A stretch of 39,389 nt of DNA, taken from Escherichia phage vB_EcoP-Ro103C3lw. Both the position numbers and the translations under genes were made by a program. Position 1 is the first letter of the stretch. Each line of letters begins with the position of its first letter. This document shows, piece after piece, positions 1 through 35,882 of the stretch. The stretch is from sequence record MN067430; one strand, given 5' to 3'. The notes under the pieces were generated by a model. It had not been told where the DNA came from and did not search any database. It was given only the letters and a program-made list of their open reading frames with translations.

Positions 1-191
1 TCTCACAGTTCAAGAACCTCAAGTCTCCCCCCATAGGGTCACTCTCAGTCAGACCAAAGGCCCTACCCCTAGACCGAAGGTCTAAACCTAAAGTCTTTGA
101 CCAGAAGTCAGGACCAGAAGTCTACCTCAAGGGCCTATATCTAGTGGTTGGGACCAGAGGTCGGGACTATATGTTGTGTCACTGAGTCTCT
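1..191. repeat. Left direct terminal repeat (DTR), 191 bp
   Basis: Bases 1..191 are identical to 39199..39389 by direct comparison; T7-like genomes carry terminal redundancy of this size (T7 160 bp). Confidence 0.95.
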
Positions 192-537
192 ATCTGTATT
201 AGCCTAGAGTCATCACCTCAGGTCATCACCTACAGTCTCACTACCTACAGTCAATCTATCAGTGATGTGACACCTACAGTCAAAGACCTACGGTCCGGTA
301 GACACTCAGATTGACCTATCGTTTATCAGAGACCTTAGGTCTAGTCTCACAGGTTATCGTTATAGTCTCTGTTTAGCAGTCAGGGAGACTATCAGTCTGA
401 CTAGGGTTATTGTTGGTGTCTACCAACTGGACTCTTATTATCCATAGTCAGGACTTAAAGTCCATCATCTGTAGTCGTTATTGGTCTACCTTATAGAGTC
501 ACTGGACTACTGTATAAATTAACATGATAAATAGTTG

Positions 538-566
538 TTGACGTTTAGTCTGACCTATGAGACTAT
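538..566 (+). promoter_or_regulatory. Host sigma70-type early promoter, T7 A1-like
   Basis: TTGACG (538..543), 17-nt spacer, GACTAT (561..566); spacer tttagtctgacctatga closely resembles the T7 A1 promoter spacer as recalled. Confidence 0.55.
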
Positions 567-678
567 AGCTTCCGTCAACACGACACGGCAACAACCGGAT
601 AGTGAAGACGCCGGGTCATCCCGGTTAAGTAGACAGCCTGATAAGTCATACGAACAACAGGCAGATGACAGAAAGTAG

Positions 679-708
679 TTGACAAGATGTACCGACTTAA
701 AGTAGTAT
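679..708 (+). promoter_or_regulatory. Host sigma70-type early promoter, T7 A2/A3-like
   Basis: TTGACA (679..684), 18-nt spacer, TAGTAT (703..708). Confidence 0.5.
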
Positions 709-1165
709 GGACCACATCGAAGCAACGGTGACGACCGACACTAAATGGTCTACCTGAAGTCCACTGACTGAAAGGAATGCTCTTTAATAATATGACCGTG
801 TATTGATAGGCTTACTAACAACATAGGGTAACTATCATGGATTACAATCAGTTGAATTGGGAATGGTTGGCATACGAGGCCGCCTATGAAGATATGCTGA
901 ATGCGAGTGCATATGTTTGCAGTGATTGCGATGCAATAAGTATTCATGAGGCGATAACAGACCATTTAGCATTTTACAGGAAGTTTGTAGCGTGAGATAG
1001 CTGGCACTAGCCAGCCTATCACTACACGGTCATGCTCTTTAACAATCTGGATAAACTCTTAATGTGCGCCGATAGCGACTAACTACAGGGTCTTTGAGTC
1101 TACATCTGAAGGCCCTGACTGATAGTCACTAACATACACACAAACAACTTTGAGAGGATATAACT

Positions 1166-1498
1166 ATGGAACGTAACGCTAACGCATACTATGAGCTGCT
1201 GGCTGCAACCGTTGAAGCATTTAACGAGCGTATTCAGTACGACGAAATAGCTGAAGGCGATGATTATCACGATGCGCTGCATGAGGTCGTAGACGGTCAG
1301 GTTCCGCACTATTACCACGAGATTTTCACGGTGATGGCTGCTGATGGTATAGACCACGAGTTCGAAGACTATGGGCTAATGCCTGATACCAAGGATGTGA
1401 CGCGTATATTGCAAGCTCGCATCTATGAGGCGCTTTATAACGATGTGCTTAATAACTCGGATGTGGTCTGGTTTGAGGCTGAAGAGGACTGCGAGTGA
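1166..1498 (+). CDS. ocr: Ocr-like DNA mimic, anti-restriction protein (T7 gp0.3 homolog)
   Basis: 110 aa, very acidic; motifs [52 protein letters not shown] match T7 Ocr as recalled; SD gagagg upstream of ATG. Confidence 0.9.
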
Positions 1499-1653
1499 TG
1501 GTAACTTATGGTCTCTGCCAGAACCATGTAGCCAACGCCCGGATTATGGTCAAGACCGGGCAGTTAAACCACGATGCGACTATGCGTCACCTGAAGGCGG
1601 TCTATGAGGGACGCAAGCGTATTCACGACAGCTTACACGATGAGGGCAAGTAA
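1498..1653 (+). CDS. Small early protein, 51 aa, possible gp0.4-like
   Basis: ATG overlaps the ocr stop (TGATG); same length as T7 gp0.4 with weak pattern similarity (YGL...LK..YE); not in the ORF track because it is under 60 aa. Confidence 0.45.
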   Translation: MVTYGLCQNHVANARIMVKTGQLNHDATMRHLKAVYEGRKRIHDSLHDEGK

Positions 1654-1655
1654 AC

Positions 1656-1781
1656 ATGTACCAGATAACGTATAGCAGTGAACAGGCGTTCTACGATGGG
1701 TGCTACGAGATGATGAGGCGCGGGGCTTGCTACGTGGCTAATCACCAGAGCCTGACCATAACGCTGACGGGTGGTTACTGA
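1656..1781 (+). CDS. Hypothetical small early protein, 41 aa
   Basis: ATG 3 nt after the previous stop; open frame to TGA at 1779..1781; tight packing typical of T7 early genes. Confidence 0.35.
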   Translation: MYQITYSSEQAFYDGCYEMMRRGACYVANHQSLTITLTGGY

Positions 1782-1851
1782 GTGATAGACGAGAGGTCAT
1801 CGACTGATAGGTGGCCTCAAAGATTGCCACTTACATTGATAGGAGTTAACT

Positions 1852-1941
1852 ATGAACATCGGTTACTGGGTATGCTTATCTCCGGTCATCTTTCTGATAG
1901 CTTGGGGACTTCTGGACGCAATCAAGCGAGGGTCATTCTAA
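1852..1941 (+). CDS. Hypothetical small hydrophobic peptide, 29 aa
   Basis: SD AGGAG 7 nt upstream of ATG 1852; translation MNIGYWVCLSPVIFLIAWGLLDAIKRGSF. Confidence 0.4.
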   Translation: MNIGYWVCLSPVIFLIAWGLLDAIKRGSF

Positions 1942-2138
1942 TGAGCTGGGTACTTATGGGTATCTTCGGCTATGGACTTATCGTCTACGTACTGGTGAGT
2001 GACATCAACAAGGCGCGTAAAGTCTACAAATTCAACTATGTACGTATGGGTCGCTGGACTGTACGTCAACCTAACGGGCGATTCATGCGCAACTTAGCAA
2101 ACGTCTGGGATATAGCAACACTTGGGAGCAAACTGTAA
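1941..2138 (+). CDS. Hypothetical small membrane protein, 65 aa
   Basis: ATG overlaps the preceding stop (TAATG); hydrophobic stretch WVLMGIFGYGLIVYVLV; the supplied ORF 1782..2138 extends it upstream from a GTG that lacks an SD. Confidence 0.45.
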   Translation: MSWVLMGIFGYGLIVYVLVSDINKARKVYKFNYVRMGRWTVRQPNGRFMRNLANVWDIATLGSKL

Positions 2139-2464
2139 TGAACAAGTCATACGGGATTAATCTGGTACACTCTATGGACGCAGACATGCAAATGTTAAGC
2201 CTACTGGCTACCGGGTATCGTCACGGAACGTCAAGTCACTCCGCACGTCAACAGCAGGAGAGGGACCGGGTACTGCAAGCAAGACTCCGGGCTGAGGGCC
2301 ATAAGTCCGAGCTGATGTGTCTGGCGTATGGTGGACGACCAATCACCGATGATGGTAAACTTCTGGTCTCAGGCTGGAAGGCGATAGACCAACGGTCAAC
2401 CATCAAGCACACGACTCATGGTGACTTCAGTCATCTCCACGCTAACCCGCTGATATGCAAGTAG
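2138..2464 (+). CDS. Hypothetical early protein, 108 aa
   Basis: ATG overlaps the upstream stop (TAATG); sits where T7 has gene 0.7 but is far shorter and has no recognisable kinase motifs. Confidence 0.5.
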   Translation: MNKSYGINLVHSMDADMQMLSLLATGYRHGTSSHSARQQQERDRVLQARLRAEGHKSELMCLAYGGRPITDDGKLLVSGWKAIDQRSTIKHTTHGDFSHLHANPLICK

Positions 2465-2469
2465 TAATT

Positions 2470-2492
2470 ATTAAACCCTCACTATAGGACTC
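2470..2492 (+). promoter_or_regulatory. Phage RNAP promoter, immediately upstream of the RNAP gene
   Basis: attaaaccctcactataggac; +1 G at 2487. Confidence 0.75.
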
Positions 2493-2560
2493 AAGGTCTA
2501 AGACTTCAGTTAAAGACCAAAGAGACTTAAGTGAAAGACTAACAAACAAGGACTTTAAGT

Positions 2561-5227
2561 ATGAGCGTCATTCAGCTTGAGAAGCATGACTTCTCGGACA
2601 TCTCCAACGCTATCGAGCCGTTTAACATTCTGGCTGACCACTACGGGCAGGACCTCGCAGTCAAACAGCTTCAGCTTGAGCATGAGGCATACACTGAAGG
2701 CGAGCGTCGTTTCATCAAGAATCTTGAGCGTCAGGCTGAGCGCGGGGGGCTGGCTGATAATCAGGTCGCAAGACCATTGATGCAAACTCTGGTCCCTAAA
2801 CTGGCGCAAGCCGTCAAGGAGTGGCACGAGACCCAAGGGTCAACCCGTGGGAAACCTCAGGTCGCCTTCCTGAAGCTGAGCACCGAGTCGAAACCTCGTG
2901 CGCTACTGGTCCAACCCGAGTCGGTGGCGGTCATCGTCCTGAAGATTGCGCTCAGTAAGCTGGTCAAGCCTGAAGGCGTACCGATAACGCCGATGGCCTC
3001 CGCGATTGGTCGCACACTGGAGGATGAAATCCGTTTCGGTCGCATCCGTGACCAAGAGCAAGAGCACTTCAAGAAGACCATCGCCGAGAACCTGAAGAAA
3101 CGCGCTGGCGTGGCCTACAAGAAAGCCTACATGCAAGCGGTCGAAGCCTCCATGCTGGACCAGAAGCAACTGGATGATGCGTGGGGGACTTGGAGTCCTG
3201 ACGAGGCGGTCCACGTAGGAATAAAGATGCTGGAGCTGCTGATTCAATCCACACAACTGGTAGAGCTGAAGCGACACAACGCTGGGAACGTAGCGTCAGA
3301 CGTCGAGATGGTCCACCTGTCAGACTTCTGGGCCAAGAAGATGGCTCAGCGAGGCTACAGCCTTGCGGGTATCGCTCCGGTCTACCAGCCGTGCGTCGTG
3401 CCTCCACGCCCTTGGAACTCAGTGGTCGGTGGTGGGTACTGGGCTAAAGGTCGCAGACCTCTCCCGCTGATGCGCTTAGGGTCGAAGGCTGCTATCGCTC
3501 GCTACGAGGAAGTTTACATGCCTGAAGTCTACGAGGCGGTGAACATCATTCAGCAGACACCGTGGAAGGTGAATAAGAAGGTGCTGGACGTAGTGAACAT
3601 GGTCGAGAAGCTGAACAATACGCCTATCGCAGACATCCCGCAGATGGACCCGATGAAGCCTGAGGAGTACGCAGGTGAGACCGAGGAAGAACTTAAAGCG
3701 TGGAAGAAAGCTGCTGCTGGAATCTATCGCCGCGAGAAGGCCCGACAGTCCCGCCGCTTGTCCCTGAGCTTCATCGTCGGACAGGCGAACAAGTTCTCTC
3801 AGTTCAAGGCCATCTGGTTCCCGTACAACATGGATTGGCGCGGTCGAGTCTACGCGGTCCCGATGTTCAACCCGCAAGGCAACGACATGCAGAAGGGTCT
3901 GCTGACTCTGTCAGTCGGCAAGCCAATCGGTGCGGACGGCTTCAAGTGGCTGAAGGTTCACGGTGCAAACTGCGCGGGTGTCGATAAAGTCACCTTCGAG
4001 GAGCGCATCAAGTGGGTCGAAGACAACCACGACAACATCCTCGCGGCTGCTAAGAGTCCGATGGATAGCATCGACTGGTGGGGCAAGTTAGACTCTCCGT
4101 TCTGCTTCCTCGCGTTCTGCTTCGAGTATGCCGGGGTCATGCACCACGGGCTGAGCTACTCCTGCTCACTGCCTATAGCGTTCGATGGGTCCTGCTCTGG
4201 GATTCAACACTTCAGCGCGATGCTCCGTGACCACGTTGGTGGACATGCGGTCAACCTAACGCCAAGCGGGAAGGTCCAAGACATCTACCGCATTGTGTCC
4301 GACCGGGTGGAAGAACAGCTTAAGGAACTACTGGTAAACGGTAGCGACAACGAAGTCAAGACCTTCGAGGACAAGAAGACAGGCGAAATTACTGAACGTC
4401 TGGTCCTTGGAACTCGTGAGCTGGCCCGTCAGTGGCTGACCTACGGGATGTCACGCACGGTCACTAAACGCTCGGTCATGACTCTGGCCTACGGGTCGAA
4501 GGAATACGGGTTCGCAGACCAAGTGTTTGAGGATACCGTGATGCCAGCGATTGACAACGGCAAGGGCGCGATGTTCACGGACCCAAGCCAAGCGTCCCGC
4601 TTCATGGCTAAGATGATTTGGGATGCAGTGAGCGTGACCGTAGTTGCTGCGGTAGACGCGATGAAGTGGCTCCAAGGCGCTGCTAAACTGCTGGCTGCTG
4701 AGGTCAAGGACAAGAAGACCAAAGAGGTCCTGAAGCCTTGCCTCCCGGTTCACTGGGTCACGCCTGATGGCTTCCCGGTCTGGCAGGAGTATCGCAAGAA
4801 GGACACCACACGTCTTGACCTGATGTTCCTCGGGACTTTCCGTCTCCAGCCGACAGTCAACAAGGGGTCGAGCAAGGAGCTGGACAAGCACAAGCAGGAG
4901 TCAGGCATCAGCCCGAACTTTGTACACTCACAAGACGGCAGTCACCTGAGGAAGACTGTGGTCCACACCCACCGCAAGTATGGCGTGATGTCCTTCGCAG
5001 TGATTCACGATAGCTTCGGGACCATCCCGGCTGACGCTGAGTTCCTGTTCAAAGGTGTCCGTGAGACGATGGTCGAGACCTACCGCGACAACGATGTGCT
5101 GCAAGACTTCTACGAGCAGTTCGCGGACCAGCTTCACGAGAGCCAGCGCGACAAGTTGCCTGAGCTTCCAAAGCGCGGTAAACTGAACATCGAAGACATT
5201 CTGTTATCTGACTTTGCATTCGCCTGA
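2561..5227 (+). CDS. gp1: Single-subunit DNA-directed RNA polymerase (T7 gp1 homolog)
   Basis: 888 aa; long conserved blocks versus T7 RNAP, e.g. WFPYNMDWRGRVYAVPMFNPQGNDM, HGANCAGVDKV, PIAFDGSCSGIQHFSAML, KRSVMTLAYGSKE, NFVHSQDGSHLRKTVV, ends SDFAFA. Confidence 0.97.
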   Translation: MSVIQLEKHDFSDISNAIEPFNILADHYGQDLAVKQLQLEHEAYTEGERRFIKNLERQAERGGLADNQVARPLMQTLVPKLAQAVKEWHETQGSTRGKPQVAFLKLSTESKPRALLVQPESVAVIVLKIALSKLVKPEGVPITPMASAIGRTLEDEIRFGRIRDQEQEHFKKTIAENLKKRAGVAYKKAYMQAVEASMLDQKQLDDAWGTWSPDEAVHVGIKMLELLIQSTQLVELKRHNAGNVASDVEMVHLSDFWAKKMAQRGYSLAGIAPVYQPCVVPPRPWNSVVGGGYWAKGRRPLPLMRLGSKAAIARYEEVYMPEVYEAVNIIQQTPWKVNKKVLDVVNMVEKLNNTPIADIPQMDPMKPEEYAGETEEELKAWKKAAAGIYRREKARQSRRLSLSFIVGQANKFSQFKAIWFPYNMDWRGRVYAVPMFNPQGNDMQKGLLTLSVGKPIGADGFKWLKVHGANCAGVDKVTFEERIKWVEDNHDNILAAAKSPMDSIDWWGKLDSPFCFLAFCFEYAGVMHHGLSYSCSLPIAFDGSCSGIQHFSAMLRDHVGGHAVNLTPSGKVQDIYRIVSDRVEEQLKELLVNGSDNEVKTFEDKKTGEITERLVLGTRELARQWLTYGMSRTVTKRSVMTLAYGSKEYGFADQVFEDTVMPAIDNGKGAMFTDPSQASRFMAKMIWDAVSVTVVAAVDAMKWLQGAAKLLAAEVKDKKTKEVLKPCLPVHWVTPDGFPVWQEYRKKDTTRLDLMFLGTFRLQPTVNKGSSKELDKHKQESGISPNFVHSQDGSHLRKTVVHTHRKYGVMSFAVIHDSFGTIPADAEFLFKGVRETMVETYRDNDVLQDFYEQFADQLHESQRDKLPELPKRGKLNIEDILLSDFAFA

Positions 5228-5976: not shown

Positions 5977-5994
5977 ACCCTCACTATAGGATTA
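5972..5994 (+). promoter_or_regulatory. Phage RNAP promoter (gene 1.1 position)
   Basis: gcttaaaccctcactataggatt; +1 G at 5989. Confidence 0.8.
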
Positions 5995-6062
5995 GACTAA
6001 AGGTCGCTGACTTCCAGTGGCCTTCATGATTAACCCTAAACTCAATCACTGGAGATTTAACC

Positions 6063-12899: not shown

Positions 12900-12917
12900 T
12901 CCCTCACTGTAGGATAG
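12895..12917 (+). promoter_or_regulatory. Phage RNAP promoter, variant
   Basis: ctattaatccctcactgtaggat; +1 G at 12912. Confidence 0.65.
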
Positions 12918-12972
12918 ACTCAAGGCCATTCACATCGAGTGGTCTTTATGATTAGACTATAGGAGATTAACC

Positions 12973-35566: not shown

Positions 35567-35826
35567 CGCAGATGGACTTAGAGAAGTTCCTGTTAATGCT
35601 GGACACCGAACGTGCTCGACTAATGCTGCAAGACCTGCGGGATGACTCTAAGCGTTCGCCCCAGCTCTACAACTCCATCGAGAAGCTGCTGGCCCGTCAC
35701 AACTTTGTGTTAAGCAAGGTGTCGGTGGACGAGAAGCAGTTGGCAGACATGGAGGCGCTGAACCGAGAGTACGACAAGGTTCTCTCAGCGACCGAGGATA
35801 ATGACACCGGGTATGGTGTCCAGTAA
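35563..35826 (+). CDS. gp18: Terminase small subunit (T7 gp18 homolog)
   Basis: 87 aa; F.LMLDT..A..ML.DL.D..RSPQLYN.I.KLL.RH.F matches T7 gp18; ATG overlaps the holin stop (ATGA). Confidence 0.88.
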   Translation: MTQMDLEKFLLMLDTERARLMLQDLRDDSKRSPQLYNSIEKLLARHNFVLSKVSVDEKQLADMEALNREYDKVLSATEDNDTGYGVQ

Positions 35827-35882
35827 GTGTTAGACTCAAGGTCATCTATTGGTGGCCTTTATGATTAACACTAGGAGGTGGT

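Follow-up and report, generated by a model that had tools for sequence, protein, structure and literature searches.

The early region of Escherichia phage vB_EcoP-Ro103C3lw (sequence record MN067430) contains five small open reading frames (ORFs; o1 to o5, bases 1498-2464) between the anti-restriction gene ocr and the gene for a T7-type RNA polymerase (gene 1). Analysis of the whole 39,389-nucleotide (nt) stretch, hereafter the window, indicates with good confidence that these ORFs form the host-polymerase early operon of a Kayfunavirus, with a T7/T3-like layout but without an optional kinase cassette. At 39.4 kb, the window represents a complete T7-like genome of this genus (K1F-like), and comparison with its relatives identifies the block as the usual, already annotated Kayfunavirus early set and no peculiarity of this genome. 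In particular, the early region of Escherichia phage Peacock (MK903279) has the same five genes in the same order, with 97-100% protein identity, and the block is also found in EPr2, Vec13, SH4, B1 and CR8; Peacock, EPr2 and Vec13 annotate the five ORFs as hypothetical proteins. The block also appears in published tables of Citrobacter phage SH4 and Enterobacter phage B1, with a 108-amino acid (aa) protein directly before the RNA polymerase. A preliminary description of the window had presented the set as unusual, which the gene-for-gene annotation in Peacock, EPr2, Vec13, SH4 and B1 contradicts. The individual early-gene families occur in 109 to 617 phage records. The main value of these results is one of annotation, as they describe a normal operon, a polymorphic kinase gene and a doubtful protein family (phrog_36394).

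All five ORFs are located on the + strand and have exactly the sizes first reported: o1 (1498-1653, 51 aa), o2 (1656-1781, 41 aa), o3 (1852-1941, 29 aa), o4 (1941-2138, 65 aa) and o5 (2138-2464, 108 aa). They are preceded by ocr (gene 0.3; 1166-1498, +, 110 aa), which matches the ocr-like anti-restriction family phrog_2568 (E = 9.5e-53) and is 52% identical to T7 gp0.3, and they are followed by gene 1 (2561-5227, +, 888 aa), identified from the ORF list and the annotation of its homologues. The tight packing attributed to the block, through overlapping stop and start codons, holds for ocr/o1 (TGATG), o3/o4 (TAATG) and o4/o5 (TAATG); it does not extend to o1 and o2, which are 2 nt apart, or to o2 and o3, which are separated by 70 nt holding a structured RNA element. 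That element, a hairpin at 1776-1841, separates ocr-o1-o2 from o3-o4-o5, and the resulting layout (R0.3 / ocr-o1-o2 / R0.5 / o3-o4-o5) matches that of T7 (R0.3 / 0.3-0.4 / R0.5 / 0.5-0.6-0.7), where the gene order comes from the T7 record and the R-site names from established T7 literature. Within each group the genes abut or overlap, and translational coupling is therefore permitted.

Comparison of each ORF with 16 to 24 distinct homologues, drawn from 26 related loci, identifies all five as conserved coding genes under purifying selection. The ratios of nonsynonymous to synonymous substitution rates (dN/dS) are 0.23, 0.17, 0.17, 0.39 and 0.22 for o1 to o5 (16 relatives for o2), and 0.19 for ocr; the window is the shared reference in these pairwise comparisons, which are not phylogenetically independent, and the signal is uniform. 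Most substitutions in o1 to o5 fall in third codon positions, and a Shine-Dalgarno sequence of the GGAG/GAGG type precedes every one of the five. Even for o3, with 29 codons, the length, the ATG and a purine-rich Shine-Dalgarno-like stretch (GGAG, GGGG, GAGG and variants) are kept in 16 of 17 loci, and the replacements among relatives are conservative and hydrophobic. For o5, the 108-aa form likewise has a conserved start codon and Shine-Dalgarno sequence. Scans of all five ORFs against Pfam, NCBIfam and PADLOC, the last a library of bacterial defence-system proteins and not of phage anti-defence proteins, returned zero matches, and literature searches found nothing on the expression of these genes in K1F-like phages.

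An alternative is that not all of the small ORFs are genes, the 29-aa o3 and the 41-aa o2 being the likeliest chance frames, and that the real gene is a 118-aa frame that starts at a GTG (1782-2138) and runs through the gap and o3 into o4. This frame is open in the window, and its N-terminal part matches phrog_36394 (E = 2.7e-18), so that others have annotated it. However, in 9 of 18 loci a stop within o3 breaks the long frame, whereas o3 itself stays open in all 18, and substitutions across the o3 region favor the third position of the o3 frame (81, 74 and 202 at the three positions). Further, the long frame opens with 60 nt that form a conserved RNase III (ribonuclease III) hairpin, which explains the family match without coding. 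These comparisons make the alternative extremely improbable; the 118-aa frame is regarded as a mis-call, and phrog_36394 was probably built from such mis-called frames, read through an RNase III site. The part of the window that this family matches (1782-1905, +, in the o4 frame) consists of the translated hairpin and out-of-frame o3.

By its sequence and predicted fold, the o2-o3 gap is a T7-type RNase III site in the R0.5 position (1776-1841, +), at which cleavage is predicted. The hairpin formed by bases 1776-1856 has a folding energy of -21.9 kcal/mol (z = -2.7), and the element itself (GAGTGATAGAC..AGGTC..GTGGCCT..GATT..CACT) has two stems with an internal loop. The same sequence and two-stem structure are found in the annotated T3 sites R0.5, R0.3 and R1, and in the T7 sequence between genes 0.4 and 0.5. 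An alignment of 22 T7, T3 and Kayfunavirus elements yields a consensus of 19 base pairs, 7 with compensatory changes, and a covariance model for R sites built from this alignment finds five sites in the window (1069-1140, 1776-1841, 5983-6047, 12915-12954 and 35826-35872). The first of these (+, 25.9 bits, E = 5e-4) is an RNase III-type hairpin upstream of ocr, in the R0.3 position. A search of bases 1-3000 matched no Rfam family. A hairpin at 2479-2534 was considered as an R1-type site between o5 and gene 1 and rejected; its z-score against shuffled sequences is -0.6, and the covariance model finds no site there.

The preliminary description had taken the ORFs for early genes, which the distribution of phage promoters bears out. 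There are 12 matches to the phage promoter in the window, all on the + strand, where 0.01 would be expected by chance; the first (TTAAACCCTCACTATAGGA, 2471-2489) lies just past o5 and directly upstream of gene 1. As there is no phage promoter upstream of 2471, the five ORFs would be transcribed only by the host polymerase. By analogy to T7 A1-A3, host transcription probably begins at sigma-70 promoters near 540 and at 679-708. The best candidate in a consensus scan (TTGACA-18-TAGTAT; 679-708, +) agrees at 10 of 12 positions, and a second has an A1-like TTGACG box near 538. After genome entry, E. coli RNA polymerase would transcribe the block from these promoters (about 540-710), and RNase III would cut the early transcript at the hairpins. 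Separately, the promoter at 2471-2489 could allow the phage polymerase to transcribe its own gene; CR8 also has a predicted promoter directly upstream of gene 1, where the T7 record shows only the E. coli C promoter.

Searches of the whole window with T7 and T3 gp0.7 (tblastn) found no kinase at E <= 1, so the reported absence of the gp0.7 kinase is correct. Its portrayal as a distinctive loss does not hold, as the kinase is a cassette that is present in some close relatives and absent from others, and the window contains the empty site, at the 1776-1841 hairpin. The same queries detect a kinase in 7 of 22 IMG/VR relatives, between o2 and o3/o4, and it is also present in Klebsiella phage SAKp10309, Citrobacter phage CR8 and Enterobacter phage B1; K1F itself is without it, and its presence or absence has already been noted for CR8 versus CR44b (PMC4038870). 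In some relatives the insertion begins after o1 instead of o2, and the kinase lies one or two genes upstream of o5. In the nine loci examined, the kinase has 243-244 aa and ends about 20 residues past the ITDPVS motif; it is thus a kinase domain without the roughly 140-residue tail of T7 and T3 gp0.7.

Further, the structure of these loci suggests how the cassette moves. SAKp10309 combines all the genes of the window, in the same order, with the kinase, which has an R-type hairpin on either side; both of these hairpins align to window bases 1778-1844. In further loci, different insertions are surrounded by two or three copies of the hairpin. The R sites of this phage group thus differ from T7-type R sites in being repeated around optional cassettes, which suggests that the hairpins are recombination points for cassette exchange; the kinase cassette would be gained or lost by recombination between the repeated sequences. 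Repeated hairpins bracketing cassettes were observed in loci L012, L013, L014, L017, L028 and L029.

The first ORF of the block was originally said to bear a weak resemblance to T7 gp0.4, and profile comparisons make it a true member of the gp0.4 family (PF26807). o1 matches phrog_5058 with a cross-match to phrog_7202, and T7 gp0.4 matches phrog_7202 with a cross-match to phrog_5058 (reciprocal, E = 7e-5 and 9e-5). In a large protein collection, the precomputed Pfam assignment PF26807.1 is carried by 60 of 60 o1 homologues and 43 of 43 homologues of T7 gp0.4; the Pfam scan of o1 was empty because the copy that was scanned is without PF26807. An alignment of the two family profiles (hhalign) has a probability of 90% (E = 1.6e-6, 41 columns, 39% identity). 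The AF2 (AlphaFold2) model of o1 is a two-helix hairpin (residues 8-20 and 25-48) with a mean predicted local distance difference test score (pLDDT) of 84.9, and T7 gp0.4 has been described as alpha1/alpha2 (PMC13423816). A Foldseek search of the model against BFVD returned only other small T7-like phage proteins, none of them named. Both proteins have 51 aa and start in overlap with the stop of ocr or gene 0.3; T7 gene 0.4 starts on the last base of gene 0.3 (position 1278 in both).

Mutational data for the T7 protein allow the likely target of o1 to be considered. A 2026 study found that alanine at V15, V22, W28, M32, L35 or Y39 abolishes the toxicity of T7 gp0.4, that W28L and L35P abolish FtsZ binding, and that A12, T14, L16, S19 and R23 contact the CapRel(Ebc) sensor (PMC13423816). 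In the hhalign register, the FtsZ-contact set maps to o1 residues V11, V18, H25, M29, L32 and Y36, of which all but H25 are identical, and these five are nearly invariant across the o1 family. The CapRel-contact set maps to Q8, H10, A12, R15 and K19, with no identities among the five. In the proposed mechanism, o1 would bind monomeric FtsZ by the same face as T7 gp0.4 (V11, V18, M29, L32 and Y36) and block Z-ring assembly; as it is without the five CapRel(Ebc)-contact residues, it may not trigger the CapRel(Ebc) defence. This makes o1 a natural variant for asking whether FtsZ inhibition is separable from CapRel sensing.

The prediction extends to K1F, whose protein YP_338091 is 71% identical to o1. 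Dhanoa et al. observed that cells infected with K1F form filaments with about four Z-rings, and concluded in 2022 that K1F 'lacks the 0.4 genes', a BLAST search having found nothing; a novel inhibitor was proposed (PMC9372555). From the family assignment and the retained contact residues, we infer that inhibition of FtsZ in the K1F-like group is due to o1 and its K1F homologue. Such an action would account for the filamentation in K1F infection, and it makes the diverged gp0.4 gene of 49-51 aa next to ocr a specific candidate for the inhibitor that the 2022 study called unknown.

Several points weigh against the reading of the block set out so far. Translation of the ORFs, RNase III cutting and FtsZ binding are all inferred for this phage. 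As no R1-type site was found before gene 1, o3-o4-o5 may stay on the gene 1 transcript. The AF2 model of o5 is poor (pLDDT 57) and the protein has no homologue of known function; the role proposed for it below is a guess. For o1, the enrichment of identities among the contact residues is modest (5 of 6, versus 16 of 41 overall; hypergeometric p of about 0.03), and the K1F protein alone scores only E = 0.029 against the T7 profile, which also explains why the 2022 BLAST search missed it. The main caveat is that W28, which is invariant and FtsZ-essential in T7, corresponds to a histidine in o1 and in 24 of 25 members of its family. As W28L abolishes FtsZ binding by the T7 protein, the interface may differ. 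It is conceivable on this basis, and given an overall identity of only 39%, that o1 is a gp0.4 homologue that has been retargeted and no longer acts on FtsZ. However, the required contacts other than W28 are identical and nearly invariant in the family, and K1F shows the FtsZ phenotype with its o1 homologue as the only gp0.4- or Kil-like gene; retargeting is accordingly considered unlikely, and inhibition of FtsZ is the preferred prediction for o1.

The second T7/T3 family in the block is represented by o4, which by sequence similarity is a membrane protein of the T3 gp0.6 family. o4 matches phrog_2385 (E = 5e-28), as does T3 gp0.6 (E = 9e-30); the two proteins are 36% identical over 55 aa (BLASTP), and o4 is 83% identical to the K1F 'gene 0.6' product. 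The gp0.6 proteins of T3 and phiYeO3-12 and the K1F product share with o4 an N-terminal transmembrane helix, a basic tail and the position after R0.5. The most hydrophobic 17-aa Kyte-Doolittle window of o4 scores 2.19 (residues 4-20), compared with 2.33 in T3 gp0.6 (residues 2-18), and its tail is very basic (isoelectric point, pI, 10.7). Members of the family occur in 617 phage records, among them those of Klebsiella Przondovirus, Yersinia, Dickeya and Erwinia phages. In contrast, no ORF in the window matches T7 gp0.6A/B, the MreB inhibitor (phrog_8393), and BLASTP finds none at E <= 10.

The second hydrophobic ORF is o3, a predicted single-pass membrane peptide with a best 17-aa window of 2.04 (residues 8-24); the count of two hydrophobic ORFs given at the outset is thus confirmed. 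o3 matches no family and has no similarity to T7 gp0.5 (phrog_16572). Both are very small membrane proteins encoded directly after R0.5, but they differ in length (47 aa for gp0.5 and 29 aa for o3) and are unrelated in sequence. K1F and Vec13 have an unrelated 55-aa membrane protein in the o3 slot, and some loci carry both. o3 and o4 would be inner-membrane proteins whose basic C-termini face the cytoplasm, a placement that for the o4 tail follows from the positive-inside rule. In locus L008 (2600-2743), a deletion has created a 47-aa hybrid in which o3 continues in frame into the C-terminal 19 residues of o4. The soluble, mildly acidic o2 is found in 109 phage records, with a weak match to phrog_33188 and no informative homologue.

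According to the preliminary description, only the first ORF resembled a T7 protein, an account to which the relation of o4 to a named protein, T3 gp0.6, has to be added, and homology to T7 gp0.4-0.6 would have counted against its reading. Such homology was found for o1, by profile search. Its expectation of undescribed functions stands for four of the five ORFs and not for o1, which falls in the gp0.4 family. With two of the five genes in named T7/T3 families, its interpretation as a whole is supported in part.

The last gene before gene 1, o5, is a well-conserved orphan at a key position. It matches phrog_7066 (E = 6e-46), is named gp0.38 in EcoDS1 and CR8, and occurs in 223 phage records; in large protein collections it forms 143 clusters at 90% identity and 15 representatives at 50%. 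The contigs that bear it, where complete, are about 40 kb long, as for T7-like phage. The protein is basic (pI 9.3) and predicted to be helical. The family has variable N-terminal extensions and a core that corresponds to residues 25-108; invariant positions include L46, R49, L75, L76, T92, G95, D96, F97, H99 and L100. A profile search of 1.84 billion representative proteins gave 15 matches, all to its own small family or to low-complexity segments in long proteins. Single-sequence and profile searches against PDB sequences found nothing significant, and a Foldseek search of the model against the PDB gave no match. In the K1F RefSeq record (NC_007456, locus L005), a homologue with 90% identity over 68 aa is unannotated at 2262-2465.

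The position of o5 is that of gp0.7 in T7 and T3, although the two have no detectable similarity. The constant position before gene 1, together with the presence alongside o5 of only a tail-less kinase or none, suggests a host-takeover role that possibly replaces the gp0.7 tail; o5 would be a soluble host-directed factor. In its specific form, this proposal states that o5 is a functional stand-in for the C-terminal shut-off region of gp0.7, split off as a gene of its own. All nine of the kinase-bearing o5 loci encode the short kinase described above, and the T7 gp0.7 tail occurs in 190 records, none of them labelled Kayfunavirus; moreover, o5 occurs with or without the kinase, and both o5 and the tail are basic and predicted to be helical. 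However, the argument from position and distribution is correlative only, and the stand-in proposal is judged very doubtful. Descent of o5 from the shut-off tail (residues ~240-359) was also examined and rejected, as the profile-profile probability between the o5 family and T7/T3 gp0.7 is 0.1% (hhalign), with a gp0.7 profile that is shallow and consists of two sequences, T7 and T3.

The region around ocr also invites a different explanation for o2 to o5, namely that they are anti-defence genes, dispensable on naive hosts and needed only against particular immune systems, an idea already raised in the preliminary description. They adjoin ocr in the first DNA to enter the cell, and all four are narrow families without housekeeping homologues. 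Further, the region is mosaic, with interchangeable cassettes (ocr or a SAM (S-adenosylmethionine) lyase, the 55-aa membrane protein or o3, and the kinase or its absence), a pattern typical of arms-race loci. Yet none of these ORFs matches a known anti-defence or defence-related model or a known structure, and o4 and o5 are nearly universal in the group, not patchy, which fits a core takeover role better. The anti-defence explanation is considered fairly unlikely. A combined proposal is that o5, perhaps acting with the coupled o3 and o4, is a host-takeover or anti-defence factor of K1F- and CR8-like phages that replaces the gp0.7 tail through an unrelated fold, and that, separately, o1 blocks FtsZ yet has lost the surface recognised by CapRel(Ebc); taken as a whole, it is speculative and rather improbable.

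The genome around the operon is mosaic. Bases 1100-2600 have matches in 266 phage records, with Peacock at the top (97.6% identity), but over the first 20 kb the identity to the closest records is only about 88-90%; the window is therefore a distinct mosaic genome with a Peacock-like early region. The RNA polymerase gene, which is only about 78% identical to that of Peacock, leads to the same distinction. Across its N-terminal 200 residues (window 2561-3160), the polymerase shares only about 78% identity with its counterparts in Peacock, K1F and most relatives, but 98-100% with those of loci L014 and L019. Comparison with loci L001-L028 places a mosaic junction between o5 and gene 1.

The head of the operon is variable as well. 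Many relatives are without ocr at this position (loci L008-L011, L013, L014, L019-L021, L023 and L028), a T3-type SAM lyase occupies the operon head in Enterobacter phage B1, and most kinase-bearing loci are also without o1. Upstream of ocr, the window has a 52-aa acidic ORF (837-995), followed by a GC hairpin (1000-1015), where Peacock has ORFs of 81 and 92 aa. The 52-aa ORF is shared with just one related locus (L022), and the same slot in Peacock, Vec13 and K1F holds unrelated ORFs of 81-92 aa.

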